Below, one piece after another: positions 9,221 to 37,523 of a stretch of DNA of 64,000 nt; position 1 is the first letter of the stretch, and the number at the start of each line of letters is the position of its first letter. The notes beneath the pieces are model-generated. The model did no database searches and had not been told where the DNA came from. It saw nothing but the letters and a program-made list of their open reading frames with translations. The translations under genes were made by a program, and so were the position numbers. Origin of the DNA: a virus; IMG/VR virus record IMGVR_UViG_3300042521_002634, positions 34,427 to 98,426 of that record; one strand, 5' to 3'.

Positions 9221-10948
9221 TTACACCTCTGTTGTTGGCGTCGGCTCTGTCGTCTTTTCTGGTGTCGGCGTCTCTACTGGCGATTCGGCAGCACTCGGCT
9301 GCGCTGTCTCTGTCTCTGGCGCGCCCTGCAAAATCTGCTGTAGTGCAGACGGCACAGGCGCGACGCTCGTAGCTTGCTGTGCGCTTCTTGCAGCGTCCAT
9401 GACGTCAGGCGCGATCGCCGTCAGCACAGCTTGAGTAAGTTCAGGAGAGATTACGCCCTTGTCGATTATCATACGAAGAGCGACTTCCTTAGCTGTTGGT
9501 GCGTCGGCCTCGCTAAATCCATGAGCACGGCGCCAAGTATCGTATGAAACTGCACCACGGTCAAATCCACTGTCAGCGTCTGCAGCGCGGTCATTACGAG
9601 TTGATACCTGCGATGGGTCGTACCAAGCGACAATTCGTGAAACTTCCGTTGGATCAAATCCATTAGCAATCAAGTATGGACGCAGATAGACAACTGTCAG
9701 CGCGTCGGCGATAAGCAGCATCAACGGTTCGATGTGAGCCTTATACAACGACTCATCAATTTGAAGTGCGTTGCTATACTTTACGTTTGCCATTCCGGTA
9801 ACAACATCTTTTGGAATGTCGATGCCTTGAAGAATACGCTCAAGAACACGGTCAGCTCGCTGAGCAAGTGACGGGTCGAACGAACGCTCGAACTTGAACT
9901 GCTTAATCTTGTCACCAAGCTCTGCTGGGCCGCGAATGATCAACGGTACAACAGCGCTTGCTGAGTCCTCGTCGCGGATCGGCGTCGTCATAGCATCGAT
10001 CAGCGCGTCTTCAAATTCGTCTTGTTGCTCTTCAGGCGTCGGCATTGACTCAAAATCTGAGCCCGTGTCGTAAGGATAGTCAGGATCTGGATTAGCAGCG
10101 ACGCTAAGTCCGTCTGGCAAATACAAAGCTCCTGCGTTTAATCGTGACCGCGCAGTTGCACGGAACGTGCGATTCAAAAGCATAAGTTCAGCGCAGAGAT
10201 CTAACAGTCCACGAAGCGATGAATCTGCTTCGTCGCTGTAGCGAGGATGCGCGCGCCAGATGCGGCCAACAAACGCACTTCCTGGAACTTTAATTCCGCC
10301 TTTGCGTGTAGCGTCCTGACCAGACAACTCTCGTCGAGGCGAGATGACGTAGTTACCGCGCGTGTCAAGCGACACTTCGTCTACTGAGCGAATGTCCCAT
10401 GACTCTGGAATACTGTGCCCGGGACGCGCTGGCATCTGCACGAGATAGCACTCGCCTGCAACGCTAAGATTCAACGCTGCGTCTCGAAGCATTCCAGCTT
10501 GGCCGCCGTAAGCAGAGTCAAGACGCGATAGCGCGCGTTCTGCTGCCGCGGCTAGTGCAGCGTCCACCTTAGTGGCTGAACGAACGTTGACAGGCATCTC
10601 TGCTGGGTTCTCAACAACTGCTGCGTGCAAACGAATTCGTGACACGACTGAGCCAACTAAGTTAAAAGCGTATTTAATTTCTCCAATAGCGTCGTAGTAC
10701 TCCCAGGCTTCAGACTGCCATTGGCTAGAACCAGCAGAGCGACGTTGCCTGAACATCTCTGCTTCATTCTTATTGTTTACGCTTACCTGTGCGGCAGCCG
10801 CTGTAAGACCGCGCGGCGCGTTATATGGAACTGAAATAGCTGGTGAGTATCCAGAAGGCACGATAAGCGAAGATGACAATACCTGCGGATTAGTAGCGTT
10901 TGTGCGACGTGTTCGTGCTATTGATTGATTGCGCCTGAAGACGCCCAT
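9221..10948 (-). CDS. Portal protein
   Basis: 575 aa; WQSEAWEYYDAIGE, LSVAGECYL, IWRAHP, SAVVPLI motifs of actinophage portals; downstream of terminase. Confidence 0.8.
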   Translation of the reverse strand: MGVFRRNQSIARTRRTNATNPQVLSSSLIVPSGYSPAISVPYNAPRGLTAAAAQVSVNNKNEAEMFRQRRSAGSSQWQSEAWEYYDAIGEIKYAFNLVGSVVSRIRLHAAVVENPAEMPVNVRSATKVDAALAAAAERALSRLDSAYGGQAGMLRDAALNLSVAGECYLVQMPARPGHSIPESWDIRSVDEVSLDTRGNYVISPRRELSGQDATRKGGIKVPGSAFVGRIWRAHPRYSDEADSSLRGLLDLCAELMLLNRTFRATARSRLNAGALYLPDGLSVAANPDPDYPYDTGSDFESMPTPEEQQDEFEDALIDAMTTPIRDEDSASAVVPLIIRGPAELGDKIKQFKFERSFDPSLAQRADRVLERILQGIDIPKDVVTGMANVKYSNALQIDESLYKAHIEPLMLLIADALTVVYLRPYLIANGFDPTEVSRIVAWYDPSQVSTRNDRAADADSGFDRGAVSYDTWRRAHGFSEADAPTAKEVALRMIIDKGVISPELTQAVLTAIAPDVMDAARSAQQATSVAPVPSALQQILQGAPETETAQPSAAESPVETPTPEKTTEPTPTTEV

Positions 10949-11275: not shown

Positions 11276-11646
11276 TCAGTTGGGTCCTTACTCGAGTGTA
11301 GTGTATTATACGGATTCCAGCTTCGTAATCTGCTTCCGCAACCGCAGCTATCGTCACGAACGAAGATAATCGTCTTACCCGTAGAGGTAGTTAGTGATGA
11401 TTCGGTACGGGCGCTTCCGCTCCAGTTCAACTGTTCAATCGGCTCGGAGAAGATCGTCACAGGTCCTTTGTGTGAGTCCGCCGCGATCAAAACCCGAGAA
11501 TCCGTAATCAGCACGCGAACCGCCTCAACAAGCCTCGTCGGTGGTTGCGGCTGGCTGGTCTTCGTCGTCAACTGCTCAAGCGAGATGCCGTGATTCTGCG
11601 GAGCAACAAGAACTCGAGCCGGAAAGATATCGTGAAGAACCTTCAT
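11272..11646 (-). CDS. Hypothetical protein (CGCGSRL motif)
   Basis: 124-aa ORF with ATGA overlaps at both ends. Confidence 0.7.
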   Translation of the reverse strand: MKVLHDIFPARVLVAPQNHGISLEQLTTKTSQPQPPTRLVEAVRVLITDSRVLIAADSHKGPVTIFSEPIEQLNWSGSARTESSLTTSTGKTIIFVRDDSCGCGSRLRSWNPYNTLHSSKDPTE

Positions 11647-12176
11647 CTTGTAATTCTCCTATTTATCGCGCGATAGGTAACTTCTGCAGCCGCGGCGATC
11701 TCTCTAACCGTAACGCCTCTCGAGTACAGCGTGTTCACTAACTGCGTGAAATCCGCGTTCGCTTTTCCATAGGCGGAGGAGGTAGAAGAGGTAGATCTAT
11801 ATCTACTTGCGAGTTGCGCTAAAGCCTTGATACTACTCTTGTCAACTTCAGTGAGCCCCGGTGAAGCGTGCGGCATAACGTTCTTGCGCTTCGGCGCGTA
11901 TCTATCCTTCTTGGCGGGGGCGGTAGGAACGGGGTGAACTGAGTGAACTAAATTAAAGCTTGAGTTTTTCACCGCGGATATTGTTGAATCGGAAGAAGAA
12001 GAGGGAGAGATCCAAGATCTTATTGTAGATCGGGAGCGGGGCGGCGCACAGGCCTTGCCCACGGCTGACATCGACCAACCTGCGGCGACGAGCTCGCGAA
12101 CACGGGCCTTTAACTCGTTACCCGACAATGCGCCGAGGAGGCGGTGCTCACTCTCAGGTAACTGCGCTCTCTCCAT
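11643..12176 (-). CDS. Tandem helix-turn-helix DNA-binding protein
   Basis: GWSMSAVGKA...RSTIRSW and GVTVREIAAAAEVTYRAINRR; TGATACAAT just upstream suggests a leaderless transcript. Confidence 0.7.
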   Translation of the reverse strand: MERAQLPESEHRLLGALSGNELKARVRELVAAGWSMSAVGKACAPPRSRSTIRSWISPSSSSDSTISAVKNSSFNLVHSVHPVPTAPAKKDRYAPKRKNVMPHASPGLTEVDKSSIKALAQLASRYRSTSSTSSAYGKANADFTQLVNTLYSRGVTVREIAAAAEVTYRAINRRITR

Positions 12177-12901: not shown

Positions 12902-13345
12902 TTAGACGATGACGTTGATGAATGGTTCATCAGCGAACAAAGCTACAAGCATGTCCGCATCGACAGTGCCGGTTACCGCACGGTTGTTGGCCGCTTGATA
13001 TTGCTCTACCGCACGCTTAGTTGCGTCTGCATACCAGCCGTCTTTGTCAGTGCCTGCTTCATTGAACCCGCATTCGACTAAACGACGTTGAAGGTGATGT
13101 ACTGACAACGACTTGCGTGTTGCTGGGTTTTTGTAGATGCACATGTCAAGCCGCACGTCATCGCTGTCCGCACCGCTTGCGACAATTCCTACGCCAGACT
13201 TGACCGCACGCTTACGCGGCGCAGGTTCAGGTGTTGGTTCAGGTGTTGGTTCAGGAGCAGGCGCTACTGGCTGCTCTTCGACAACTACCGCAGCCTCTGC
13301 CACGACTGGAGTCTCTTCAACTGCTGGGGTTTCTTCGTTGCTCAT
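12902..13345 (-). CDS. Peptidoglycan-binding-domain protein with Pro/Glu-rich N-terminus
   Basis: VHHLQRRL...DGWYADATKRAVEQYQ...TGTVD (PG_binding_1-like). Confidence 0.7.
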   Translation of the reverse strand: MSNEETPAVEETPVVAEAAVVVEEQPVAPAPEPTPEPTPEPAPRKRAVKSGVGIVASGADSDDVRLDMCIYKNPATRKSLSVHHLQRRLVECGFNEAGTDKDGWYADATKRAVEQYQAANNRAVTGTVDADMLVALFADEPFINVIV

Positions 13346-13395: not shown

Positions 13396-14811
13396 CTAGC
13401 GAGGCGAGAACACACGGCCACCGCCGCGGCCATTGCCGTTCCTAAAGCTTGGCAAGCGTCTGTGCGCCAACGACTTGGCTGTGATAGTTCCTCCGAGGAA
13501 GCCCGCAGGTGGCTTGATTAGCAAAGCAGTAAGTGCGTGAACTAAGGCGTCAACTCTGTCTGGTGACTTGCCTTCACCTGGAATCCATGCGCACATCTGC
13601 GACTCGAGGTCCGCAAGATAATTGACGTGATGCACGCGGTTTTGCTCGTAGGCAAGTGTGATTGGTTCAGCACGCAAGGCTTTGCCGACCTTTGAATGAA
13701 CCTCAAATACTTTGATCGTTGGGTCGATTGTGTTGATGGCATTCCGCACTAGTGCGCCGCCTTGGTTTACTTCTGCTACAACAGGGCACGACCACTTGCG
13801 CGCCATTTGAACTACCGTATTGGCCCAGCGGTCTGGCGCGCCAAGAAGTGACGCGTCCTCGAGAACCCATGAATGACGCTTGTACAAGTCACGTTCGCCT
13901 GTGGAAGCAACAACAACAATCCCGCATTCGTCGCGCGGATTCTCGGCTACGGACGGGTCGACGCCGATGCAGCGCAATGGCGCGCCAAGCGGCAGTTGTT
14001 TTTCCCGGGCGCGTTCAATCAGCTCGATAGTCCACAGCGCGCCTTCGATGTCACTAAGCATTTCACCGTAGAGCTCTTGAGCTGCCAACCGAGTGCCCTC
14101 GTAAACGCCTGTGATTGCGTCAAGATAGGTGCTTGAAAGGTTGCCCGCATTGTCAAGTGTCGAACCTCGTGACACGACAACGCGCCCAGTTTTTTCTGCC
14201 TCGTTCAGCAAGCCGTACAGCATTGGCACACGCTTTGGCGTTGTAGTGCAGATGATTTGTGGATTGGCGCCAAGACGAGTTGCAACTCGAACGTTGTCCC
14301 ACGACGTCATGCCCGCAGCGTCTGGCGACTGACGCCACGCCGCAATCTCGTCGCACCAGGCGTAGTGAAACTGAGGACCGCGAAGGCCGTCGGGTTCGTC
14401 AGCAGTAAAGCAAGTAGCCGTATTTCCGTTGGGCCAAGTCAGACGGCGCTTCGATGGCTCGTATAGTGGGCGCTCGCTTGGCGGCGAAACAGAAATGATA
14501 CCAGATTCGCCTTCAACAATTACGTCACGAACGTCGGCTGCAGTACGAGCGACAAGGGCAAAGCGAAGTTGGCCCATGTTTGTGACCTTAGCTCTATCAC
14601 GAACCCACTCCGCAGCTGACCGCGTCTTACCAGCACCGCGGCCAGCGAGGTACATCCATATTGACCAGTCATCTCCCGGCGGTGGCACTTGTTCCGGCCT
14701 TGCCCAGAGTTTCCAGTCCCACACAAGAAGCTCTGGGTCGATTCCGTCGAGAACTTTGTCACGCTCTTCGCGCGGCAACTTAGCAAGCTCTTCCATGATG
14801 CTCTTGGCCAT
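13396..14811 (-). CDS. terL: Terminase large subunit
   Basis: Walker A AGRGAGKT, LRGPQF, Walker B WCDE, TTTP coupling motif, nuclease GVDP and SPDRVDA. Confidence 0.95.
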   Translation of the reverse strand: MAKSIMEELAKLPREERDKVLDGIDPELLVWDWKLWARPEQVPPPGDDWSIWMYLAGRGAGKTRSAAEWVRDRAKVTNMGQLRFALVARTAADVRDVIVEGESGIISVSPPSERPLYEPSKRRLTWPNGNTATCFTADEPDGLRGPQFHYAWCDEIAAWRQSPDAAGMTSWDNVRVATRLGANPQIICTTTPKRVPMLYGLLNEAEKTGRVVVSRGSTLDNAGNLSSTYLDAITGVYEGTRLAAQELYGEMLSDIEGALWTIELIERAREKQLPLGAPLRCIGVDPSVAENPRDECGIVVVASTGERDLYKRHSWVLEDASLLGAPDRWANTVVQMARKWSCPVVAEVNQGGALVRNAINTIDPTIKVFEVHSKVGKALRAEPITLAYEQNRVHHVNYLADLESQMCAWIPGEGKSPDRVDALVHALTALLIKPPAGFLGGTITAKSLAHRRLPSFRNGNGRGGGRVFSPR

Positions 14812-14823
14812 GGAGCTATTGTA

Positions 14824-15051
14824 CTACGAAGCAGCAGCCTTGTAGCCGCAAGGGCAGTGTTTTGAAAGCATTGGCATCATCCTTGCGCCACACCTCGGGC
14901 AGGGCTCTTCAACTGCCCTGCGCGAGTGATCACGGTCGTCGTAGTGTTTGTACGAAGTTACGTCCGCATGCTTTTTGACAACATGAATCATCGCATCGTT
15001 CGCGCTGTCGTGTCTGGCATCGCAGAACTTGCACTTATGTTTGCCTGCCAC
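14824..15051 (-). CDS. Small zinc-finger protein
   Basis: CKFC...H...H and CPRC...CPCG; probable GTG start overlapping the upstream stop. Confidence 0.55.
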   Translation of the reverse strand: MAGKHKCKFCDARHDSANDAMIHVVKKHADVTSYKHYDDRDHSRRAVEEPCPRCGARMMPMLSKHCPCGYKAAAS

Positions 15052-15578
15052 TAAAGACTCCAGTGACCAAGACCACCGTTGTTGTACAGATACTTTGCAA
15101 CAGCGATGTTGCACTCGACAGCGAACAGAACGTCCAAGTGCCCAAACGGCTGTCCGCAGATCTGCATAGTCACTGTTTTCCAAGTTGAGTTGATCTGCAG
15201 CAGCCCGTAGTCTCTTGACTTGTCTCTGTTGAGAGTGCTGTTGTACGCAGTTGGAGTGCATCTTGACTCGCGCCAAGCGATGAATGAAAACTGTTCAACT
15301 GGCAAACCTGCCTCAGCAAACAGCGGCTCAAATTCCGGGCAGCGTCTACTTGACTCTACTGACAGCGCCTTTATCGAGCTTTCTGCAACTGAAGTGCTAG
15401 TAACTGGCGCCGCATCAATCTCGACAGCAGGCGCCACGCTTGAAGGCGTAGTTTCTGTTGCGATTTCTACACGAACTGGCTGCAGATCCGCAGGCTCACC
15501 AAATGTCACGCTTAAACTAAAAGAAGTCAAAGAGTAGCAAACGGCAGCACCAATTGTCACCTTGGTAGACGTCCGCAT
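15051..15578 (-). CDS. Secreted lytic transglycosylase (SLT-like)
   Basis: N-terminal hydrophobic segment; WRES, DYGLLQIN, NIAVAKYLY...GLGHW. Confidence 0.85.
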   Translation of the reverse strand: MRTSTKVTIGAAVCYSLTSFSLSVTFGEPADLQPVRVEIATETTPSSVAPAVEIDAAPVTSTSVAESSIKALSVESSRRCPEFEPLFAEAGLPVEQFSFIAWRESRCTPTAYNSTLNRDKSRDYGLLQINSTWKTVTMQICGQPFGHLDVLFAVECNIAVAKYLYNNGGLGHWSL

Positions 15579-27062: not shown

Positions 27063-27233
27063 CTATATCGAGATCGGGCAACTCAGGTTCGCATCGTTTG
27101 AGTGGAATCGAAGTTCCTGCTTGCAAACTGCGCAGATTTCGTCTAAGTCTAGACCAACAACGCTGTCGTTGTAGTCACGCATAGCTCGTCGTTTACCTGC
27201 TCGATAAGCGATGTACAGTCCTAAGATTCCCAT
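27063..27233 (-). CDS. Small membrane-anchored zinc-binding protein, probably leaderless
   Basis: ATG 6 nt after the -10 of motif 27240; CAVC...H...C. Confidence 0.6.
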   Translation of the reverse strand: MGILGLYIAYRAGKRRAMRDYNDSVVGLDLDEICAVCKQELRFHSNDANLSCPISI

Positions 27234-27266
27234 AACTACATTATAACAGCTCTGGATGTCCAAAGT

Positions 27267-27354
27267 GGCAGCGGTCTTGCCTTGCAGCCTCCCGCCAGGC
27301 CGATGCTTGAAATTGGCAGCGGTCTTGCCTCTGCAGCCTTCCACCAGGCCGATG
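27267..27354. repeat. Tandem ~48-bp repeat carrying bipartite motif GGCAGCGGTCT-N18/19-CAGGCCG
   Basis: Copies at 27267 and 27315; dispersed copies at 33909, 35028, 35340. Confidence 0.85.
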
Positions 27355-27356
27355 TC

Positions 27357-27560
27357 TCAATCGCGTTTAGGGAACGCAATGATCTTAGCATCAGGCGGTT
27401 CAGGCAGCACCTCGATGTCGAGGATGTCAACCATCTCTGCGTCTTCTATTCCCTGCGAGACAGCTGCGAATACCTCACCGTCTATCTCTGTGTATGCGTC
27501 AGGCCCGCGCCTCACGCACAGCCGGACCACTACTGAGTAGAGGACCGTGCCTTCACTCAT
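27357..27560 (-). CDS. Small hypothetical protein
   Basis: ATGA overlap with 27557..27775. Confidence 0.6.
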   Translation of the reverse strand: MSEGTVLYSVVVRLCVRRGPDAYTEIDGEVFAAVSQGIEDAEMVDILDIEVLPEPPDAKIIAFPKRD

Positions 27561-27775
27561 GATTGTGCGGCGTCAGGGAACACCAACGGCAGCGCTAACT
27601 GCGCCGTCGGTTTCATCTTGCCGCCTGACAACTGCAGCGCGATACTTCCACGCTCGCCTTCAGGCGCGTTGTCGACGTCTTCCCACTCGTCCTCGGTCCA
27701 GTCTGATGTGTCGACGACGACTAATTGACGAGCATTGCCGTAGTTTCCATCGGCAGCGAAATAGTGAATTGTCAT
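27557..27775 (-). CDS. Cassette hypothetical protein
   Basis: YFAADGNYG...DTSDWTEDEW; promoter 27805. Confidence 0.7.
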   Translation of the reverse strand: MTIHYFAADGNYGNARQLVVVDTSDWTEDEWEDVDNAPEGERGSIALQLSGGKMKPTAQLALPLVFPDAAQS

Positions 27776-27888
27776 TAGGTTATCCTTTCGTTGTTGTTAC
27801 GTACATTATATAAACTCTGGAAGAATGAACCAACCCGGGAGGAACACTAAAGGACAAGTAAAGTGTGTCCACCCCGGGCCGGCGATCT

Positions 27889-29682
27889 TTAGCGTTGAAC
27901 TGACTCCAGCGCTCTTGCTGCTGCAGATCCTATCTGCGTCGCTACGTCTGCGGCACTTGTAATCTTCTCGACGAGCTGCACTGACTTGGTGCTCGAGCTA
28001 TTGAGAAGTCGACGAGCGTCGTCACTCGCTAACGGAGACACAACCATGACTCCGACACCAAGTCTTTCGCACTCATCTAACCAGCGTCGTGCGTTCTTCG
28101 TCTCTTCGTGAGTGTAACACAGATCGCTAACGATGACGAGCAATCGCGCGCCTACGCCATTGAGCAAGTTCAACGAACCATCAAGCGCTTTGAATGCTTT
28201 CTCAAAGCGTTCAGTTCCATCTGGCGCCGAGTACACTGTCACCTCTGACAAGTGCTGCCCGGGCTTCAATGTTGGGAACACCCCAGTGCCGTAGTAAACC
28301 ATCGCCGCACGGCCTTGAACTCTCCGCACCGCTTCGCTCATGACCCACGCTGTCACTGCCATCGGCTCCATCGCCGAGGACATTGAACCGCTGATGTCGA
28401 CCATTACGCCGACAGTGAGAGTTGGGTCGTCAGTGTGCGTGCGCTTAGTCCGGCGCCATGGCTCTACTTGCGTCATGATGCCCTTCGACTTAAACGCTGC
28501 TCCCTGCACCATAGCGCGCGTGCGCAACCGGCCAGGAGGAACGATCGACTTAATCTCAGTCTCGTCACGCTCACGATACTTAGCTTTCTCAAGCATCTGC
28601 GCTACCTTGACTGCTGCTGCTCGTTCATCACCACGTGGAGCGCGCTTTTCAACTAGACGACTGTTTGTCTCAGAAGAAGATTCTGGCCCAGTGCCTCTAC
28701 CGAATACTTTGTCCGCAGCGTCCTTGTGTTCTTTCTGCTGCTTCGCTGCACCGCTTCGACTTTTAACTTCACGCTCCCATTCTTCTTGCGTCTGTTGATC
28801 TGCTGCATCGGCTGAACCACCGACAGCTGCGTTGCCAGCTGCTTCCTCGAGTGCTTCCTCGAGTGCTTCCCCGAACTCGCCAAGCTCGCCTAGCCCTGAT
28901 TCACCTTGACCAGGCTCTGGCTCACCAGCTTCAGCTGCTGCCTCTTTAACTAATCTTGCCCACTCACGGGCGACAGGGTAGAGACCTTCAATTGAACTGT
29001 GTGAAGTGTAGTCCTGAGCTTGCAGCCATAGGTTGCGAAGCTTAGTGAAGAGCTCTACACCAAGCTTATTGATTAGAACTTCCTCTACAGTCTCGATGTC
29101 TGACAGCTCGAGTGAACCCGCATCTACGCGTGCTGACGTGAGTGCCGCCATGTGCGCTGCTGTCCACATGCTGCTGGTGTCTACACCGGTGACATTGAGG
29201 TCAGCCATCACTATCTCGAGCGCGCAAGCGCGGAGAAACCCGGAGTTACCTGGCATCAAGGTGACGCCTAAGTTCTCGATACGACCTTCTTCAAGAAGCA
29301 CGAGTGCTTTGAACTCAAGAGACTCGAGGTCCTTCTGCGCTTTAATGAGATCCCAGCGAGAGAACCGAGCGTGGAGAGCTTCATGGAATATGACACCAGA
29401 AGCTTTAGGCCAGTCGAACTGAACGCTGCGTTGCGTCATGTCGCCGATCGACGCCGGCGTTATTGACTTGCCAAACGCTCTCGTCACATCTACTTCGATC
29501 TCTGCAAGCATTGGGTTGTAGCACGCTGGTGCCACGCCGCCACCGGCGCCTGGGCCGACGTACGCGATAACATCTGCGCGTTCTGCCCAGATATTTGTAA
29601 TCTGGCCGATCTGCACGCCTACGCCTAACCACTCGGGTGGCGTAGCCTCAGCTCGAGAGCTATTAATCTTAAAATGTGTCAT
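27889..29682 (-). CDS. vWA-domain protein with N-terminal HExxH metallopeptidase-like domain (CobT-like MoxR partner)
   Basis: HEALH...LEEGRIE; MIDAS motif DISGSM, DGTE, VSD. Confidence 0.85.
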   Translation of the reverse strand: MTHFKINSSRAEATPPEWLGVGVQIGQITNIWAERADVIAYVGPGAGGGVAPACYNPMLAEIEVDVTRAFGKSITPASIGDMTQRSVQFDWPKASGVIFHEALHARFSRWDLIKAQKDLESLEFKALVLLEEGRIENLGVTLMPGNSGFLRACALEIVMADLNVTGVDTSSMWTAAHMAALTSARVDAGSLELSDIETVEEVLINKLGVELFTKLRNLWLQAQDYTSHSSIEGLYPVAREWARLVKEAAAEAGEPEPGQGESGLGELGEFGEALEEALEEAAGNAAVGGSADAADQQTQEEWEREVKSRSGAAKQQKEHKDAADKVFGRGTGPESSSETNSRLVEKRAPRGDERAAAVKVAQMLEKAKYRERDETEIKSIVPPGRLRTRAMVQGAAFKSKGIMTQVEPWRRTKRTHTDDPTLTVGVMVDISGSMSSAMEPMAVTAWVMSEAVRRVQGRAAMVYYGTGVFPTLKPGQHLSEVTVYSAPDGTERFEKAFKALDGSLNLLNGVGARLLVIVSDLCYTHEETKNARRWLDECERLGVGVMVVSPLASDDARRLLNSSSTKSVQLVEKITSAADVATQIGSAAARALESVQR

Positions 29683-29800
29683 TTGTCCTTGTCCTTTGTT
29701 GTCCTTGTACTATCAATTATATAAACTCTGGAAAGAGAGGTTAGCCTCCCGCACACCTACGGGAGACCAACCAACGAAGACTGAGCGCGAAAGGCAGCGC

Positions 29801-30793
29801 TTAGATCTTCGCCGGGCGACACTCTTCTCCGAATACTCGGGTGAAGACGTCAGCCACGACTGGGCGATCCATCTCGGGAGCGGCAGCTAGCAAGTTCGCG
29901 ATAGCGAATGATGTGCCGAACTCCTTTGCGAGATCGCGGAACGCTAGAAGCTCACGCATCTGAGGAGCCCATGAGACTTCAGACGACTGCTGCTTCTTAC
30001 TTAAATTTTGCGCCGCAGTGACGATTGGCACCGGAGCTCCTAACTTACGAGCGAGCGACCAATCAGTCGTCATCTCTGCTTGCACAAGGAATCGTGACAA
30101 GAGAGCTTCAGACAATCGCACGCCTGGAGCGTTCGGGTTAGTCGCTGCGATTACGTAGAAACCTGGAGCAGCTTTCACTGTCCCACGCTCTGGGTTAGCA
30201 GTCACAGTGTATTCACGACGGCCATCCATGAGACCGTAGACGATACTGAGCACCTTCGGGTCGATAAGACCTACCTCATCGATGAGCAGCACTCCGCCGC
30301 ACTCCGCTGCTTTAAGCAGTGGGCCGTCCTCCCAGACAAAGCCACCACTTGGTGTCTGCACATATCCGCCGACTAAGTCAGCAACTTCTGTGTCGCCTGA
30401 GCCGAGCACTGTGAACAAGCCACCGGACTCGCCAGTGAACGCAGCTTCAACAACAGCAGTCTTACCGCAACCTGGTGCGCCGTACAAAAGTACGTATGCT
30501 GACATGTCTCTCGACTTGCGAAGCACCATGACATCGTCATGCTCACCCCACTTGCGTGAGTAGTAGTTCTCGCCATTTGGTCGAGTGTAACTCTTCTCGC
30601 CTACAAGCGCGTCTGCAGATATCATTGGAACTTTCTTCTTCGGAGCGATAGTCTTAGCCTTGACGCGTCCTGCGTCGAGAACCATTGACTTCATCTTATC
30701 CGCGAACTCTGAGTGCAGAGTCTGCCCCGCTGCTGCAAGCAGCACTTTGTCTAGCCCCGGGTGGAGCTTGTCGTATTCTGTACTTGATAACAT
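29801..30793 (-). CDS. MoxR/CobS-like AAA+ ATPase
   Basis: GAPGCGKT, WEDGPL, LLIDE, ATNP, EALLSRF. Confidence 0.9.
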   Translation of the reverse strand: MLSSTEYDKLHPGLDKVLLAAAGQTLHSEFADKMKSMVLDAGRVKAKTIAPKKKVPMISADALVGEKSYTRPNGENYYSRKWGEHDDVMVLRKSRDMSAYVLLYGAPGCGKTAVVEAAFTGESGGLFTVLGSGDTEVADLVGGYVQTPSGGFVWEDGPLLKAAECGGVLLIDEVGLIDPKVLSIVYGLMDGRREYTVTANPERGTVKAAPGFYVIAATNPNAPGVRLSEALLSRFLVQAEMTTDWSLARKLGAPVPIVTAAQNLSKKQQSSEVSWAPQMRELLAFRDLAKEFGTSFAIANLLAAAPEMDRPVVADVFTRVFGEECRPAKI

Positions 30794-30865
30794 TTTGTGT
30801 CCTTTCGTTGTTTGTCGTTTGGTGTGTTACTTACTTATTCATTATTATTATAAAGACTCTGGAAG

Positions 30866-31312
30866 CTAACTCTGCTTCCAGTAATCTTCAAAACTAAGAA
30901 ACTTGCGAGCTTTGTTGACTCGGCCAAGAGCCTTGTACGCGAGCTTGCCTCTGGCCGCGTCATCGACATCCTTCTGCGTGAGCTCGACGACGATTGGCTC
31001 TTTGTACAGAGCCCAGCCTCGAGTTGAAAGCTGCTGCATTGTCGAGTCTGTCAACGACGTCAGCCAAGTCGATGCCTGAACTTCAGCACTGCCGGGTCCT
31101 GGCATAACAGGGCTTGGCGTCGGGCCTGTGTAGCATCGCCACTGTCTGCGTGCTACCGCTGGCGAGATCTGTCGACGGAATACTGTAAACGGCATCATAA
31201 GCGATGAAGACGACCTAAGCGGCGGAAACATCATCATTTGATACGACGTTTTGTCGTGCCTAAATTCTAAGTAGAGCATGTGCCCTACAACTTCTGTTGA
31301 ACTGTCATTCAT
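30866..31312 (-). CDS. Cassette hypothetical protein
   Basis: Promoter 31342 and RBS. Confidence 0.7.
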   Translation of the reverse strand: MNDSSTEVVGHMLYLEFRHDKTSYQMMMFPPLRSSSSLMMPFTVFRRQISPAVARRQWRCYTGPTPSPVMPGPGSAEVQASTWLTSLTDSTMQQLSTRGWALYKEPIVVELTQKDVDDAARGKLAYKALGRVNKARKFLSFEDYWKQS

Positions 31313-31428
31313 TATTTTGTCCTTTCGTTTGGTGTGAATACATTATATAAACTCTGGAAAGCTGCCGGCTGAGGAGGGTTTCAGCCGACAGCAGTTCTGT
31401 GCTCAACTTCCGACCGGGAGTTGATTCT

Positions 31429-31806
31429 CTAGACAGCGTGCTCGTGCGAGCACACTGATAGAAAGACTTCGAAACCGAAGTTCACAAGGTCATGCTCTCC
31501 AGCGATGTCCTGAGTGACGACAGTCTGGTCTGACCAGGTGACGAGATGCACGTCATCTGTATCAGGCTCACAGAAGTCCCGGCCGCCGGCTGTAATGCCG
31601 AAGCCAGTCTCTTCACTCCACGAGTCTCCCACAATTGAGGAGATTGCGATGCGAGTCGCGTATGCTGAATCGCTCCAGCGTGGACGAGCTTTCTCGATTG
31701 CCGTGGCAATCAAGCTCAGTCTGTCGCTGCCACCCCAGTGACTGTATAGCCACACGGGAGGAGTATCTTTAGTGTCGCGGAATCCCACGACGAATCTGTC
31801 ACCCAT
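31429..31806 (-). CDS. Conserved phage hypothetical protein
   Basis: MGDR...LYSHWGG...RW.DS.YATRI; promoter 31853. Confidence 0.75.
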   Translation of the reverse strand: MGDRFVVGFRDTKDTPPVWLYSHWGGSDRLSLIATAIEKARPRWSDSAYATRIAISSIVGDSWSEETGFGITAGGRDFCEPDTDDVHLVTWSDQTVVTQDIAGEHDLVNFGFEVFLSVCSHEHAV

Positions 31807-31974
31807 TGCTTTGTCCTTTCGTCATTGCCAAGCGTTATTGCTTGACGAATACATTATAACAACTCTGGAATTACAGGCCTAGGCTGTCTTACCGCGTCCT
31901 CACGCATTGGCAAGACAGTCTAGGCCAGACCGAACGTCAGCCTGCATTACTATGCACGGCATCAGTCTGGGCTC

Positions 31975-32307
31975 TTACTTGGCGTCGAGGACCGTGTAAG
32001 ACGACTGAACTAGCGTAGCGTCGTGCGCTTCAGGGAACGCAGTCTTGAGCGCTTCACGATCAATCTTGCTCATGTTGCGATGTTGAATTCGCACACGAAC
32101 AGTTCCATTGATTGTGCCACTCTTCGCGTCACCAAGCATTGCACGAAGCTTTTGCTCCGCTTCTGCTTTCTTCGCTTCAAACGCCTTGATTGCTGCTTTC
32201 GCAGAGTTGAACTCTGCAATCGCAATCTCAGTTGCAAGTTCATCGAGAATTGCAACCTGCTCTGCTACTTCGACTGTTGAGGTCGTGATTACTGTTGATG
32301 TTGTCAT
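31975..32307 (-). CDS. Phage protein resembling the C-terminal part of YqaJ-like/Gp157 proteins
   Basis: Coiled coil followed by IDREALK.AFPE; start reset after RBS. Confidence 0.6.
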   Translation of the reverse strand: MTTSTVITTSTVEVAEQVAILDELATEIAIAEFNSAKAAIKAFEAKKAEAEQKLRAMLGDAKSGTINGTVRVRIQHRNMSKIDREALKTAFPEAHDATLVQSSYTVLDAK

Positions 32308-32406
32308 TATTGTCCTTTCGTTGTGTGTATAGTCATTATATAAACTCTGGAAACGAGAATCAAAGACGCTCGTTCCCAGAGTTGAATTCATTGTATATCA
32401 GGGGTG

Positions 32407-32820
32407 TTACAGGGTTGCTGACGCCAGCACTCTTGCTGGCTTCGAGTCATCAACATGACTTGCGCCATGGAGCTTGACCCAAGCGTCCCAGTAGCACGTT
32501 GACGAGCCATCGTCGAACGTCACCTGCTGACTCTTCAGGATGAAACCTGGAGAGCAGTTGCATGTGCAACCGGCGTGCTGCGACCAGCTCAATTTGCTGA
32601 TGTCAAGCACTCCTGCAAGTCCGCTCGAGTGAATCATCGACTTGTAGACATTGTACGGGCGACGCTTGCGATTCGCAAGGTTGCTCATAAGTGTCTCATC
32701 TTCGATGCTTACGTACATCCGAGGAGCTGCTGTCAGCTCTCGGCTGCTTGTGTATCTACGTTCAGTGAACGTAATTGACCCTCCAGTGAATTCCACTGTA
32801 CGTCGTCGTTGCGTATTCAT
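32407..32820 (-). CDS. Cassette hypothetical protein
   Basis: WSQHAGCTCNCSPGFI; promoter 32850. Confidence 0.75.
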   Translation of the reverse strand: MNTQRRRTVEFTGGSITFTERRYTSSRELTAAPRMYVSIEDETLMSNLANRKRRPYNVYKSMIHSSGLAGVLDISKLSWSQHAGCTCNCSPGFILKSQQVTFDDGSSTCYWDAWVKLHGASHVDDSKPARVLASATL

Positions 32821-32966
32821 TGTCTTGTCCTTTCGTTTGGTGTAAATACATTATATAAACTCCGGAAAGTTCGGAAGGCCGCTCAAGACGCCACATTCGT
32901 TGAACTCAGTTCTGCCTGTTTAACGGAGTGTCAGCTCCGCACCTTCCTGGCTATCAGCCAATTCTT

Positions 32967-33161
32967 CTAAACGTTGTTGATTGGCTCAAACCCAAGGTCT
33001 AGCGCGGCGCGGCGCGCTTCCTTAGCAGTCTTGAACCCACTGAACGTCGGGCCGACCACCTCGGTGTTGTGGCCGTCGTACGTGCGGTGTATGCCAAAGT
33101 ACCGACCATTCGGCCCTTTGTATACGACCATCGGCCGTAGAGGCTTAGCTTTCGTTTTCAT
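32967..33161 (-). CDS. Small cassette protein
   Basis: Promoter 33195 and RBS. Confidence 0.7.
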   Translation of the reverse strand: MKTKAKPLRPMVVYKGPNGRYFGIHRTYDGHNTEVVGPTFSGFKTAKEARRAALDLGFEPINNV

Positions 33162-33211
33162 TCTTTGCGTCCTTTCGTTGAAGTTGATAGTGATATTGTA
33201 ACAACTCTGGA

Positions 33212-33466
33212 TTAGCTCTCGCCAAGTGGATCGATTACTCGGCGAAGAGCTGTGTCAATATGAGCGTCTGCATAGCTCTTCTCAAAGCGGAAGCCATCAT
33301 CGCAAGCTCGGTGATACACGAACCAGCGATAGAAGACCTCGATGTCTTTTACAACTGGTATGCGTCCGGCTGCGAACTCTGTTCTAAACCGATCACGCAG
33401 CACCGGCGTGTCTATTCCGCTAACTACGTGCTCCAGCTCTGCAAGTTCGACTGATGATACTTTCAT
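33212..33466 (-). CDS. Small cassette protein
   Basis: DAHIDTALRRV; promoter 33494 and RBS. Confidence 0.7.
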   Translation of the reverse strand: MKVSSVELAELEHVVSGIDTPVLRDRFRTEFAAGRIPVVKDIEVFYRWFVYHRACDDGFRFEKSYADAHIDTALRRVIDPLGES

Positions 33467-33513
33467 TGTTGTCCTTTCGTTTGGTGTAGAGTCATTATAT
33501 AAACTCTGGAAAC

Positions 33514-33744
33514 CTAAGAATGAGGACTCATGACTGGGAATGCGCACTCAACACAAACAACCCATGATACTTCTAATTGATCGCATACTACAACAGCTGG
33601 AAAGAATTCGTCGTCTGTCGGGCCAACAACCATTCCGCAGTTGCAGCACTCGCTTGACTCGTAAAAAAAGTCGTAAGCGCCGACTTCAGCTGCGATCATT
33701 GCCTCAATTGGTGTCTCGACTAAGAGAAGGTTATAGCCCAACAC
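33514..33744 (-). CDS. Small zinc-binding protein (start uncertain)
   Basis: CCNCG...CVEC. Confidence 0.5.
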   Translation of the reverse strand: MLGYNLLLVETPIEAMIAAEVGAYDFFYESSECCNCGMVVGPTDDEFFPAVVVCDQLEVSWVVCVECAFPVMSPHS

Positions 33745-33791
33745 GATACAACTGGCTCACGTTCATGAGCCAACTGTATCAAATCAGAAGC

Positions 33792-34334
33792 CTAAGCTAG
33801 GCGTTTAATTTTTGCCAGACGGTCTTCAAGTTCGGCTACCCGGGCCTGAAGTTTCGCTGTTCGCTCGCTCACAAGAAGATCGATGAGCTGATCTGCAGTG
33901 TGCTTTTTGGCAGCGGTCTTGCCTTTTCGAGTGCTAGCAGGCCGACGTCCAGTTTTAAGGACGACGCCCGGTACAGCTTCAGCGACGGTGCGTGGAGGCA
34001 CAACGTTGCCTTTAGCCCAGTACAGCGACGCTTGATAGCCTTTAGGCGCTTTCATTGATGAGCGAATGAGACGTTCATCCATGGTCTCGGTACGCTTGCT
34101 TACCAGGCCGGCGGCTTCCAAACGAATCAACGCGTTTCTCACTGACACCGGATCGGCTTTTCGTCCGGTCATCTGGCTAATTGCTTGCTGAAGCTCAAGA
34201 ACGCTGAGTGGTTGAGTAGATTCAAGCAACGTAAGTTGAACGTTGTCTTTCAGTGTTTGGAACATCATTATTTTTTCTTCTATTACTTGATTGTACTTGC
34301 GCATCGTTTTCTCCTGTGTCTGTTGTATGTTCAT
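33792..34334 (-). CDS. Winged-HTH DNA-binding protein with coiled-coil tail (start may be 34304)
   Basis: PLSVLEL...SVRNALIRLEAAGLV; promoter 34345. Confidence 0.65.
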   Translation of the reverse strand: MNIQQTQEKTMRKYNQVIEEKIMMFQTLKDNVQLTLLESTQPLSVLELQQAISQMTGRKADPVSVRNALIRLEAAGLVSKRTETMDERLIRSSMKAPKGYQASLYWAKGNVVPPRTVAEAVPGVVLKTGRRPASTRKGKTAAKKHTADQLIDLLVSERTAKLQARVAELEDRLAKIKRLA

Positions 34335-34340
34335 TAATAA

Positions 34341-34748
34341 TTATATATTATCATCTCTGGAAACCCAGTTGCCTTCGGTATCGCCAAAGAGTAGCTGATC
34401 GTCTCCAGTTCTAGTCCAAGAAAACTCGCAGCACGAGTGTTCGTCTTCGTCTTCAAAAAGAGTGTGATACGGGGCACCGGCTCGAAAAATGTTTGGAAGA
34501 GCGCGAGCAACCTTTAGAAAGCAGTCGTGACAGAGCACTGTCATTTCTCGTTCTGGTTCTTCAAACATAAAATCGACGAACATGCCATAGCCGCCAAGTA
34601 AGTCAAGGACCATGCCATTTATAACTTGCGGATACTCTTCACGAGGCTCGTAGTCGATATCTACGTCTTCCACGTATTTTGGATTTTGAACGTGAGTATC
34701 CTGATTACACTCGTCGCAACGAGTCTTTGGGTAGCTGTCTCTTATCAT
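34341..34748 (-). CDS. Cys-rich cassette protein, probably leaderless
   Basis: CDEC, GGYGMFVD, LCHDC; promoter 34756. Confidence 0.7.
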   Translation of the reverse strand: MIRDSYPKTRCDECNQDTHVQNPKYVEDVDIDYEPREEYPQVINGMVLDLLGGYGMFVDFMFEEPEREMTVLCHDCFLKVARALPNIFRAGAPYHTLFEDEDEHSCCEFSWTRTGDDQLLFGDTEGNWVSRDDNI

Positions 34749-34772
34749 TACCAGAATTATATAAACTCTGGA

Positions 34773-35552
34773 TTATTCAATGGTGATCTGAAAAAGTCCA
34801 GTCTCTCGTCCAAGTCGCTCGAGTGAATTAAGCTCGGGTCCAGCTTCAGAGTCGTCTCCAACAAATCCAATTGAGCGCATCCAACGAGCTAAAGCTCTCT
34901 TCGTCTTCTCGTCGAAGATTCCTGGAATGTATCCTTCAAGGTTACACTTCAAGGCCAACGCTCGTTGCAAAGCCTCAGTGTCTAGGTTAGGCTTACTGCT
35001 TGGCCGAATCGCGCGAATTGATATTTTGGCAGCGGTCTCGGGTAATTCGCCTATGGCAGGCCGATGTTTGAACTCAGGCCTGACGAACGCGAGAACGTCG
35101 TTTCTTTCGCGGGCCCTAATAAACACACCGTCTCGGTCCTTTGACGCCTTAGGCAGGCCTGAATTTATTTGAGCCTCGATCGCCGTGAATATTCCCGCTG
35201 ACCGATACCGATGAGTCTCGAGTACGATCCCAACGTGCGGCATTCCAAAAATGGCAGCGGTCGGCCATGCGTAGAAAACAATGTCCCCGGGCCGGGGTCT
35301 CTCTGTCAACCGTCTAGCTCTTATAAACTCGCTCAGGCCGGCAGCGGTCTGCACACAGGAAGGCATAGCCAGGCCGGCGTCTCGAGCGACACAGTCGATG
35401 AACGCTCCTGACCACGGCAAAGCATGGCCGGCGTAGCCGACCCGTTGCGCGAATGGACTTAAGACTCCGGTGCGAACTCGAGTGCCAAGATGAGATTGTG
35501 CCTCGAGAAGAAATGTGTCCCGTAGGTTACTACGAAGCGATTTGCGCGCCAT
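34773..35552 (-). CDS. CHAP-like amidase fold plus peptidoglycan-binding domain (catalytic Cys replaced by Ser)
   Basis: PWSGAF, PRPGDIVFY, HVGIV, IEAQ; LQRAL...GIFDEKTKRAL. Confidence 0.7.
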   Translation of the reverse strand: MARKSLRSNLRDTFLLEAQSHLGTRVRTGVLSPFAQRVGYAGHALPWSGAFIDCVARDAGLAMPSCVQTAAGLSEFIRARRLTERPRPGDIVFYAWPTAAIFGMPHVGIVLETHRYRSAGIFTAIEAQINSGLPKASKDRDGVFIRARERNDVLAFVRPEFKHRPAIGELPETAAKISIRAIRPSSKPNLDTEALQRALALKCNLEGYIPGIFDEKTKRALARWMRSIGFVGDDSEAGPELNSLERLGRETGLFQITIE

Positions 35553-35703
35553 AGAGCTCGATGATTCCGTCAAGAAGATGAATCGCTTCGTTCAGCCGCG
35601 TGGTCATCCGAATGTGTTCCTCTCGAGTCTTTGATTTCTCGATGTCGGCTTCCAGCTGGGTGATGTGCTCTTGAGCGTGCGAGGTCAGTATCTCCAGTGT
35701 CAT
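35530..35703 (-). CDS. Small helical protein (57 aa)
   Basis: MTLEILTSHAQEHITQLEAD...; ATGA overlap with the 35700 stop; not in track. Confidence 0.55.
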   Translation of the reverse strand: MTLEILTSHAQEHITQLEADIEKSKTREEHIRMTTRLNEAIHLLDGIIELYGAQIAS

Positions 35704-36659
35704 GATTCAGCCTCTGTTCGTTCTTCTGTGCTCGTGCTCGATAGTTCTCTAGGTTCGTTATTTTCGCCGTCACTATTGTCTCTTTCGATCGATGACTCTG
35801 ATTCACTAACTCCAGCGTCGACTAGTCGAGACGCGACCTCGATCGCGCTTCTCGATAAACGAGCTAGACGATCTGCTACTATATCAGCTGCACTGCGCGA
35901 ATCGGTGACATTCAAATTGGCGTCGACTTCAACTCCTCCACGAACTCCAGCTCGATCAAGAATCTCGGTTGAGGCCTTCAACTTCACCGGCTCGCTAAGA
36001 GCGTTCTCCATAAGATCTTCGAGAACGTCAACAGCGTACGGCGCTGCCTGTACTAGCTTTGCTCGAGCGCGCTCTATATTTTCACCGGGCTTACGCTGAA
36101 CTGAGCCCAGATGAATACGACAGTAGCCGTCGTCCTTCGCGCGGCCAGACGCCCAGAGCATACAGCGAATGCCGTCTTCCTTGACATGACGACAACGCGT
36201 TGGCATCGCCGCTGGTTTTCTTCTGCTACCTGCAGGAAGGCCACCTTCGTTCTGTTCTTTTATCCAGTTGCGAGTAGCGCCGATTACCCAAGGTGGAACG
36301 AGATAGTCAGCCGCAGATTCCGCGAGTAGATCGAGGCCGGTAATGTAATCAGAGTTGACTCGGTCTGGGTCAACTAGAATTGGTTTCTTCTCTGTGAGCG
36401 AGAGCATTCTTCTGGCCTTGGCCATCTCGTCGCTGCGAGCTTGAATAAGACCGGTCGGCACTCCGTTAGAAGCATAGACCGGATCCCAGCCCATCTTGTG
36501 TCGACGAAGAATCGCGCGGTTCTCGTAGTTGTCGTGACAGATGCCGCGCTCTACTTCCTCGATGCCAAGTGCTTCGAGTTGCGGGCGGATATTTATCGGA
36601 GAGTCAACCTGAAGCTCTGGACGCTCAGGCTCTAAAGACAGTGGCTCGAGTTCGCTCAT
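35700..36659 (-). CDS. Zn-finger plus helical protein, terminase small subunit-like
   Basis: C...DGIRC...CRIHLG followed by APYAVDVL...VKLKASTEILDRAG. Confidence 0.55.
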   Translation of the reverse strand: MSELEPLSLEPERPELQVDSPINIRPQLEALGIEEVERGICHDNYENRAILRRHKMGWDPVYASNGVPTGLIQARSDEMAKARRMLSLTEKKPILVDPDRVNSDYITGLDLLAESAADYLVPPWVIGATRNWIKEQNEGGLPAGSRRKPAAMPTRCRHVKEDGIRCMLWASGRAKDDGYCRIHLGSVQRKPGENIERARAKLVQAAPYAVDVLEDLMENALSEPVKLKASTEILDRAGVRGGVEVDANLNVTDSRSAADIVADRLARLSRSAIEVASRLVDAGVSESESSIERDNSDGENNEPRELSSTSTEERTEAES

Positions 36660-37349: not shown

Positions 37350-37424
37350 TGGAGCCCTCGGTCAGGATTGAACTGACGACCTACCGCTTACAAGGCGGTT
37401 GCTCTACCACTGAGCTACAAGGGC
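37350..37424 (-). tRNA. trnT: tRNA-Thr(UGU) with encoded CCA
   Basis: GCCCTTG-TA-GCTC-AGTGGTA-GAGC-A-ACCGC-CTTGTAA-GCGGT-AGGTC-GTCAG-TTCAATC-CTGAC-CGAGGGC-T-CCA. Confidence 0.95.
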
Positions 37425-37435
37425 GTGTGTTTTTT

Positions 37436-37523
37436 GTGCGCAGTCTTGGACTCGAACCAAGAAACCTACCGCCCAACCATGGGGTCATGGACGCGGTTGC
37501 TCTACCGTTAATGCTACTGCGCG
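37436..37523 (-). ncRNA. tRNA-like RNA with a 20-nt hairpin-containing insert in place of the anticodon loop
   Basis: Acceptor GCGCAG/CTGCGC, GGTAGAGC D-arm half, ACCGC/GCGGT stem, TTCGAGT T-loop; no CCA. Confidence 0.65.

Follow-up and report, generated by a model that had tools for sequence, protein, structure and literature searches.

The question raised by this locus is what a short bipartite sequence may do that recurs, always in one orientation, both between and inside the genes of a freshwater actinobacterial phage. The element lies in the window analysed here, a stretch of 64,000 nucleotides that forms the final 64 kb of the 98,426-base IMG/VR virus record IMGVR_UViG_3300042521_002634 (estimated completeness 74%). 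From the start of the record to about 39.7 kb of the window the minus strand carries nearly all genes, and a megablast comparison of the region with cultured phages gave no match. We show that the element is under selection at the nucleic-acid level and that its architecture is common to about a dozen distant lineages of freshwater actinobacterial phages. We favour the reading that the copies are polar, operator-like sites of a fast-evolving phage regulator, probably the adjacent winged helix-turn-helix (wHTH) protein, and hold it tentatively, at somewhat less than an even chance.

A search with the pattern GGCAGCGGTCT-N17-20-CAGGCCG returned exactly the five co-oriented copies claimed by an initial annotation of this DNA, all on the plus strand, at 27267, 33909 and 35028 with a spacer of 18 nucleotides (N18) and at 27315 and 35340 with a spacer of 19 (N19). 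None of 100 dinucleotide-preserving shuffles contained any match, and the scan of the whole 98,426-base record that the annotation had proposed recovered the same five copies and no sixth. Co-orientation thus stands, but the motif as it had been written is antisense to all genes here, which are all on the minus strand. Its sense reading is CATCGGCCTG-N18/19-AGACCGCTGCCA, or with flanks (CAT)CGGCCTG-N18/19-AGACCGCTGCC(A); the left part is called box A and the right part box B in the following. Read from the sequence, the two boxes form an imperfect inverted repeat, in which CATCGGCCT agrees with the reverse complement CAGCGGTCT at 7/9 positions. The boxes of relatives are likewise about 7/9 symmetric (CAGGCCTGC versus CCCGTCTGC), and this symmetry, here and there, would fit binding by a dimer.

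Two of the copies are intergenic, as had been proposed. Copy 1 (27267-27302 (-), CGGCCTG-N18-AGACCGCTGCC) and copy 2 (27315-27351 (-), N19), both exact matches, form a 48-bp tandem between the stop codon of the gene at 27357-27560 (-) and an early promoter at 27240-27256 (-), the latter identified by its match to TCCAGAG-N4-TATAAT. Copy 2, 48 bp upstream of copy 1, begins 5 nt past that stop codon, and box B of the promoter-proximal copy 1 ends 10 nt before the TCCAGAG box. Downstream of tandem and promoter lies small gene X (27063-27236 (-), 57 amino acids, N-terminus hydrophobic-looking by eye), whose product has 94.7% identity in the close relative L034. Genes starting with MG(I/L)...Y follow a tandem and promoter in L028, L043 and L026 as well, judged by eye, a distant homology that rests on the first codons only. 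The three remaining exact copies, with unrelated spacers, are located within coding sequence, again as described before: one in the wHTH gene (33909-33944 (-)), where it encodes RPASTRKGKTAA in a disordered basic linker, and two in an endolysin-like gene (34773-35573 (-)). In the latter, site 4 (35028-35063 (-)) encodes RPAIGELPETAA in the linker between the catalytic and the peptidoglycan-binding domain, and site 1 (35340-35376 (-), N19) encodes AGLAMPSCVQTAA. The host gene consists of a CHAP/NlpC-like domain and a C-terminal segment; it matches PHROG endolysin families (E 9e-11) and, weakly, Pfam CHAP, with which the family alignment agrees, and the C-terminal segment, assigned to peptidoglycan binding by eye only, is covered by no database match.

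Close relatives of the phage were available as metagenome contigs with an endolysin identity of 91-93% (L034-L036) or 79% (L037, L047). When the endolysin gene, the neighbouring gene for a 135-amino-acid protein and the wHTH gene were aligned among them, 0/54 box positions were variable, compared with 26% of positions in the surrounding genes. The synonymous-site comparison suggested by the annotation gave the same picture, third-codon positions being variable at 0/19 inside the boxes versus 237/565 (42%) outside, an outcome with a probability of about 3e-5 if positions are assumed to be independent. Every site in these relatives has both boxes exact and a changed spacer. At site 35340, for instance, 10/19 spacer positions vary among relatives and 0/18 box positions; at site 35028 the boxes show no change even in L037 (79%), and 4/18 spacer positions vary; and at site 33909 the boxes are invariant in three relatives. 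Copies 1 and 2 of the tandem differ in L034 by one and three spacer positions, respectively, with the same boxes.

The reading frames tell the same story. Box B is read as x-Thr-Ala-Ala in all copies, and box A as Arg-Pro in N18 copies or Gly-Leu in N19 copies. The frame of the wHTH-linker site differs by lineage, being R-P here, G-L in L028 and L030 and S-G-L in G002 and in G001, a 117-kb relative that is 87% complete. Moreover, the endolysin linker residues track the box B of each lineage (ETAA, MTGA, ETVA, QTGD, QTGT), and QTAA of endolysin site 1 is YTPS or STSS in distant homologues. Frozen synonymous positions, frame changes and linker residues following box B together lend strong support to the earlier proposal that selection acts on the DNA rather than on the protein. 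The endolysin alignment contains no indel at any site, and the motif was therefore written onto existing codons, not inserted; on the same evidence a mobile mini-element inserted in genes was rejected.

Neither the dyad character of the repeat nor the far wider family to which it belongs had been noticed before. The exact motif was not found in distant relatives, whose endolysins are 39-53% identical, and an exact-motif scan of IMG/VR yielded 19 single matches, which is the chance level. By k-mer counting, each distant relative has its own analogue on the sense strand, and more lineages came from a scan of IMG/VR for the motif of the relatives and from the metagenome-assembled phage DSL-LC01. 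There is little change in box A, which reads CATCGGCCTG here and YYCRGGCCTG in most relatives; box B, separated from it by 18-19 variable bp, is AGACCGCTGCC here and GCAGACGGGCA in most relatives. Within one genome box B is identical at all strong sites, and it is different between genomes: (T)GATGACGGGCA in G001, GACGGTGG in G002, GCAGACGGG(C/T) in several other lineages and GACCGTGAGG in DSL-LC01. Such concerted, lineage-specific change suggests a trans-acting factor that co-evolves with its sites. A general pattern, GGCCT[GA]-N18-21-GAC[CG]G, in which GGCCTR and the GAC of box B are 18-21 bp apart, was counted over 14 loci of 292 kb in total and occurs 61 times in sense and 0 times in antisense orientation. 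The genome of this phage has 7 sense and 0 antisense matches, where mononucleotide shuffles of the same genome give an expectation of about 0.6 per 98 kb for both strands together. No description of the motif was found in a search limited to papers naming DSL-LC01 and papers on Microbacterium phages with terminal repeats.

Weaker matches in the endolysin-like gene have to be distinguished from the sites. The half site reported at 35253 does contain a match to the 11-mer (35253-35263 (-), encoding PTAA), but with one mismatch (GGCAGCGGTCG) and lacking a correctly spaced box A; in close relatives a CGGCCTG stands 25 nt off, and in L037 the half site is lost with the neighbouring 35028 site intact. 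It is probably without function. Two degenerate, ancestral-type matches to the general pattern, GGCCTG-N19-GACGG at 35310-35339 (-), encoding GLSEFIRARR, and GGCCTG-N21-GACGG at 35128-35159 (-), encoding SGLPKASKDRDG, overlie conserved protein motifs of the endolysin family and may be protein-driven; their box B is not of the type of this phage, and they were not counted as sites.

From these data it is very improbable that the repeats lack a function of their own and arose from a peptide motif that the loci share (RP-x8-TAA, GL...TAA) or from recent copying of one locus to another. The common x-T-A-A reading of box B would suit such an origin, as would a tandem in frame with the downstream gene and the invariance of endolysin residues R171, P172 and T180 in the family. 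Against this, the frame of box A differs between N18 and N19 copies, the freezing of synonymous positions is restricted to the boxes, and the spacers are unrelated, so that the copies are not recent duplicates. In addition, many lineages have the intergenic tandem at the same place and with a conserved sequence, though the second copy of L025 meets a stop codon, and the strand bias across lineages is 61 to 0.

Concerning their placement, the sites are strictly co-oriented with transcription, confined to the early region and phased with the -10 hexamer at promoters. They recur at three kinds of position, namely the endolysin linker, the disordered linker of the PadR-like winged-helix gene and intergenic tandems. 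Endolysin site 4 is found in nearly every lineage examined and endolysin site 1 is restricted to the lineage of this phage. An intergenic tandem, made up of 2-3 copies repeated every 47-62 bp, is present in most lineages whose locus extends past the endolysin-wHTH cluster. In G001 a single strand carries all 10 sites, in a stretch of 14.6 kb that reaches from the endolysin gene into the early array, and there are none before the replication or structural modules. The early promoters, of which 27 were listed as TCCAGAG-N4-TATAAT, precede small cassette genes, and the first one (34772) begins directly after the endolysin stop codon. Among the promoter-proximal copies, 11 cases from 9 lineages have the last box B with its GAC 22-24 nt ahead of the -10 hexamer of an early-type promoter, which places box B at -35 to about -28 and box A at about -61 to -56; the -35 region of about 25 other early promoters of the same type is not conserved. 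This fixed phasing is our main reason for placing the function at the DNA level and tying it to RNA polymerase. A tandem in L040 (17100-17260) has box A replaced by GGCAAGGCAAGGCC(A/C)GGG and keeps box B (TTGACGGGCAGC) and a distance of 23 nt to the -10 hexamer, from which box A appears to be dispensable at promoter-proximal copies.

Since the annotation had offered a promoter of an alternative or phage sigma factor as one of three functions, the phasing also bears on the idea that the sites are themselves bipartite promoters, with box A as -35 and box B as -10, read by an unrecognised phage factor or an injected polymerase and driving sense early-region genes of the immediate-early or middle class. 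Two boxes with a spacer tolerating +/-1 do have the shape of a sigma-type promoter, strict co-orientation with the genes is what promoters would display, a lineage-specific box B fits a co-evolving recognition protein, and tandems directly upstream of genes look like stacked promoters. If the left end of the genome lay upstream of 36659, as in the Microbacterium phage Cece, no oriented signal would enter the cell ahead of the endolysin sites. It is odd, however, for a -10 element to occupy the -35 position of a different, well-defined promoter in 11 cases. Furthermore, intragenic sites are 120-600 bp from the next gene start, several endolysin sites having no gene start downstream; the replication and structural modules of G001 lack preceding sites; and the boxes are unlike TANNNT or the known consensus sequences of actinobacterial extracytoplasmic function sigma factors. 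No match to sigma-70 region 2 (PF04542) was found in the 74% complete record, and PF08281 gives only sub-threshold, generic helix-turn-helix (HTH) matches. We regard such promoters as unlikely.

The same comparison extends to T4 middle promoters, which resemble the element in having two boxes with a spacer that tolerates +/-1 and in that the promoter-proximal box B sits at -35, where the MotA box replaces the -35 of T4. They differ in that most sites here have no -10-like sequence, and no sigma or MotA/AsiA-like gene was found. A 177-amino-acid protein with two HTH motifs is encoded at 11643-12176 (-), between the large terminase and the portal gene; as a small sigma factor it was rejected, the two motifs being generic and sigma region 2 missing. 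A sigma-54 reading of the plus strand (TGGCAG-N5-TTGC) was rejected as well, because it fits 3/5 copies only and is antisense to all genes; Actinobacteria, moreover, are not known to have sigma-54.

The operator, another of the three functions offered, fits best. We favour it because box B lies at the -35 of an early-promoter type and because a PadR-like gene that itself bears a site is always adjacent. This gene (33792-34334 (-)) encodes a winged-helix protein of 180 amino acids, with a PadR/MarR-like domain, a basic disordered linker and a long C-terminal helix, and its product is probably the best candidate for the factor that acts at the sites. Its Pfam match to PadR (E 0.005) is below the curated cut-off. 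The AlphaFold2 model has a predicted local distance difference test score (pLDDT) of 75, with linker residues 129-141 at pLDDT <50 and a C-terminal helix of 33 residues, and the site is encoded exactly within the disordered linker. Foldseek places the model among PadR, MarR/SlyA, Fur and RTP winged helices with a probability of 0.9-1.0 and weak E-values of 0.005-0.04. Identity of the protein between lineages is only 25-39%, and peptide patterns found no relative of it in viral_contigs. The gene cluster endolysin - (135-amino-acid zinc-ribbon protein) - wHTH - 76-amino-acid protein is syntenic in most lineages examined, and in every lineage where the wHTH gene was found, a site is located in its linker or directly after its stop codon.

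Two further features of this gene and its surroundings may be mentioned. The left arm of the heat-shock operator CIRCE reappears in the spacer of the wHTH site (window 33920-33937) as TAGCACTC; the right arm is not present, and we presume a coincidence. Between the wHTH stop codon and the gene for the 76-amino-acid protein (33745-33791 (-)) there is a hairpin with a 6-bp stem, GGCTCA-TGAACG-TGAGCC, followed by GTTGTATCGTG. A similar TGT(T)ATCG(T/C) precedes the homologue of the 76-amino-acid gene in L028 and L025, and this stretch may be a conserved leader or promoter of that gene.

On the operator reading, a sequence-specific phage protein would bind box A and box B. A PadR-like dimer could be held together by its C-terminal helix, its two heads on long linkers spanning half-sites about 25-29 bp apart and tolerating +/-1 bp. 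Bound at promoter-proximal tandems, the protein would occupy selected early promoters from about -61 to -28 and turn them up or down. The intragenic sites, in the endolysin linker and in the linker of the regulator itself, might serve as auxiliary or looping sites or as orientation-dependent roadblocks to transcription in the manner of stoperators. We infer here the binding of a protein, the identity of that protein and the sign of its effect, positive or negative.

Several points weigh against this picture. In this phage box B is 31 nt from the -10 hexamer instead of 22-24 nt, and no promoter stands at a constant distance from the intragenic sites; the role given to these is a guess, and a roadblock in the endolysin gene would also cut the endolysin message. 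PadR/MarR operators share with the element the dyad character of the site, and the candidate has a winged helix of that kind. The dyad here is imperfect, however, and of conserved polarity, and its half-sites are 25-29 bp apart, whereas known PadR operators are short dyads of the ATGT-N8-ACAT type, about 12 bp from centre to centre. The recognition helices of the wHTH protein differ in every lineage, so that a co-variation with box B is not demonstrable. Finally, the predicted hypermodification of cytosine might decorate the GC-rich boxes and thereby favour recognition as RNA.

This last point leads to a signal in the sense transcript, which could be a processing or stability element, a translational-repressor site or a nut/put-like antitermination site, with box A folded into a small hairpin and box B, after it, left single-stranded. 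RNA recognition would sidestep the modified cytosines, and it would agree with sites that are sense-only and occur both within mRNAs and between genes. By hand count, AGGC follows a few nt past box A in about 40% of spacers versus roughly 6% expected, and could pair with GCCU of box A, leaving loops of 3-14 nt. The folds of the five copies on either strand are, however, no more stable than those of shuffles (z -0.56 to +0.87), no Rfam match was obtained at the sites, and box A and box B keep a constant linear distance, in contrast to the putative loop, which varies. Promoter-proximal copies lie upstream of the start site and are hence not in the transcript of the gene they precede, and an RNA element would have no reason to keep a phasing of 22-24 nt with a downstream -10. 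An RNA signal is in our view quite unlikely. A tRNA-like 3' end (GACCGCT-G-CCA) was also considered and, from reading the sequence, rejected, there being no T-arm, no CCA in relatives and no ARAGORN-type features; Rfam tRNA matches in the window are restricted to 37353-37522.

Among described systems, the stoperators of Cluster A mycobacteriophages (PMC9283540, PMC6550527) are the closest functional analogue of operator-like sites such as these. Stoperators, too, are asymmetric, present in several copies and in one orientation to transcription (here 5/5, and 61/61 across lineages); their copies lie between and sometimes inside genes, with one overlapping a promoter -35; and their sequence varies between related phages along with the phage DNA-binding protein. 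The L5 gp71-type stoperators are contiguous sequences of 13-14 bp, bound by a monomeric two-domain immunity repressor, in temperate phages and in 20-35 copies genome-wide. The element described here is about 36 bp long and bipartite with a variable spacer, and it occurs in 5-10 copies within an early region of 8-15 kb of a probably virulent phage whose DNA is predicted to be modified. The element may therefore work like a stoperator or operator system and would not be a member of that family. The PeSL cassettes of T4-type phages resemble it in having repeated elements immediately upstream of the early promoters of small cassette genes. PeSLs, however, are promoters with terminator-like stem-loops of nearly every cassette, and the element here stands at 1-3 of about 27 promoters and also inside genes. 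We do not take the element for a PeSL, an iteron array, a mobile insertion or a promoter of the sigma-54 type.

The third function offered, a directional packaging or recombination signal, fits less well than the operator, as does the sigma-factor promoter. It brings in the gene upstream of the endolysin, which encodes a 319-amino-acid protein (35700-36659 (-)), a probable small terminase (TerS), treated here as context only. Its identity between lineages is 72-78%, compared with 30-60% for their other proteins. Among Microbacterium phages of 186-195 kb, such as Cece, Big4 and Zooman, homologues of it are encoded by gene 1, which occurs twice per record. In Cece, gene 1 is annotated as terminase small subunit, starts 62 nt from the left end and is part of a direct terminal repeat of about 18 kb, which also holds the endolysin and about 45 small genes. 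Compared with the PDB, the protein matched only small terminases, 6w7t (E 0.41) and 7joq (E 0.1), weakly and over the ILDRAG-type motif; in the protein atlas it matched only unnamed viral clusters. By analogy with Cece, the sequence just upstream of 36659 may hold the physical left end, and the early array may belong to a terminal repeat. Contigs from four lake metagenome runs are identical to the window, without population variation and without information on ends or depth. In all four runs a long contig starts near window 37378, inside a tRNA-Thr gene (37353-37424), which could be a repeat-induced assembly break, with a tRNA beside a tRNA mimic, or a real DNA end.

In such a setting the sites could be directional signals of a terminal repeat: TerS sites, marks of the repeat boundary, entry stops like those of the first-step transfer of T5, or polar fork barriers bound by an RTP-like winged helix. 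We consider this rather improbable. It draws on the TerS-like gene directly upstream and on the location of gene 1 within the terminal repeat of cultured Microbacterium phages, on the confinement of all sites, in one direction, to the 10-15 kb downstream of the TerS-like gene, on a box A as constant as the TerS-like protein, and on RTP being among the structural neighbours of the wHTH model. The sites are, however, 1.3-15 kb away, reaching out to 9-15 kb from the TerS-like gene, and phased with promoters, while known TerS sites form clusters no more than a few hundred bp from the cut. The motif was not found in Cece, the TerS-like protein is too conserved to explain a variable box B, and a terminal repeat in this phage is presumed by analogy, the contigs carrying no coverage information. 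The Ter sites of B. subtilis are bipartite, polar and bound by a winged-helix dimer, RTP, and the iterons of lambda are located in a coding region and co-vary with their binding protein. The sites described here differ from both in being spread over 8-15 kb, and nothing links them to replication. With respect to iterons, the copies in this phage are scattered over 8 kb, no replication initiator was found among the neighbouring proteins scanned, which were part of the open reading frames, and no AT-rich region beside the sites stood out by eye in the stretches read.

Elements of these readings may also be combined. The sites could be the cis-acting part of a polar control system, not described before, that governs the terminal-repeat early regions of actinophages. 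A flexible-linker wHTH dimer on long, coding-embedded imperfect dyads would then directionally stop or license RNA polymerase, or else DNA entry or replication, inward from the genome end. Its specificity would diversify between phages in the way of immunity groups, and a stoperator-like system would have arisen independently in virulent phages with modified DNA. We consider this a speculative proposal, unlikely as it stands.

Other genes of the window bear less directly on the element. The 597-amino-acid gene at 27889-29682 (-) and the gene of a 330-amino-acid AAA ATPase at 29801-30793 (-) correspond to DSL-LC01 genes annotated as cobalamin biosynthesis protein and AAA family ATPase, a pair which we take to be CobT/CobS-like and of the type common in large phages. 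The large terminase (13396-14811 (-), PHROG E 5e-24) and the portal (9221-10948 (-), E 4e-104) have several small genes between them. In this neighbourhood a second protein of the peptidoglycan-binding kind is encoded at 12902-13345 and one resembling SLT lysozyme at 15051-15578.

For the biology of these phages the element presents a clear case of a DNA signal that overrides protein sequence, since the motif determines linker residues of an endolysin and of a putative regulator, which change together with it. The polarity of 61 to 0 and the homology of the region to the terminal repeat of cultured Microbacterium phages point to a process that runs in one direction as infection begins. Judging from their lineage-specific box B, the phages may fall into specificity groups comparable to immunity groups. 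Freshwater actinophages are abundant and almost all uncultured, and for them the locus provides a concrete cis-signal together with a testable candidate factor.

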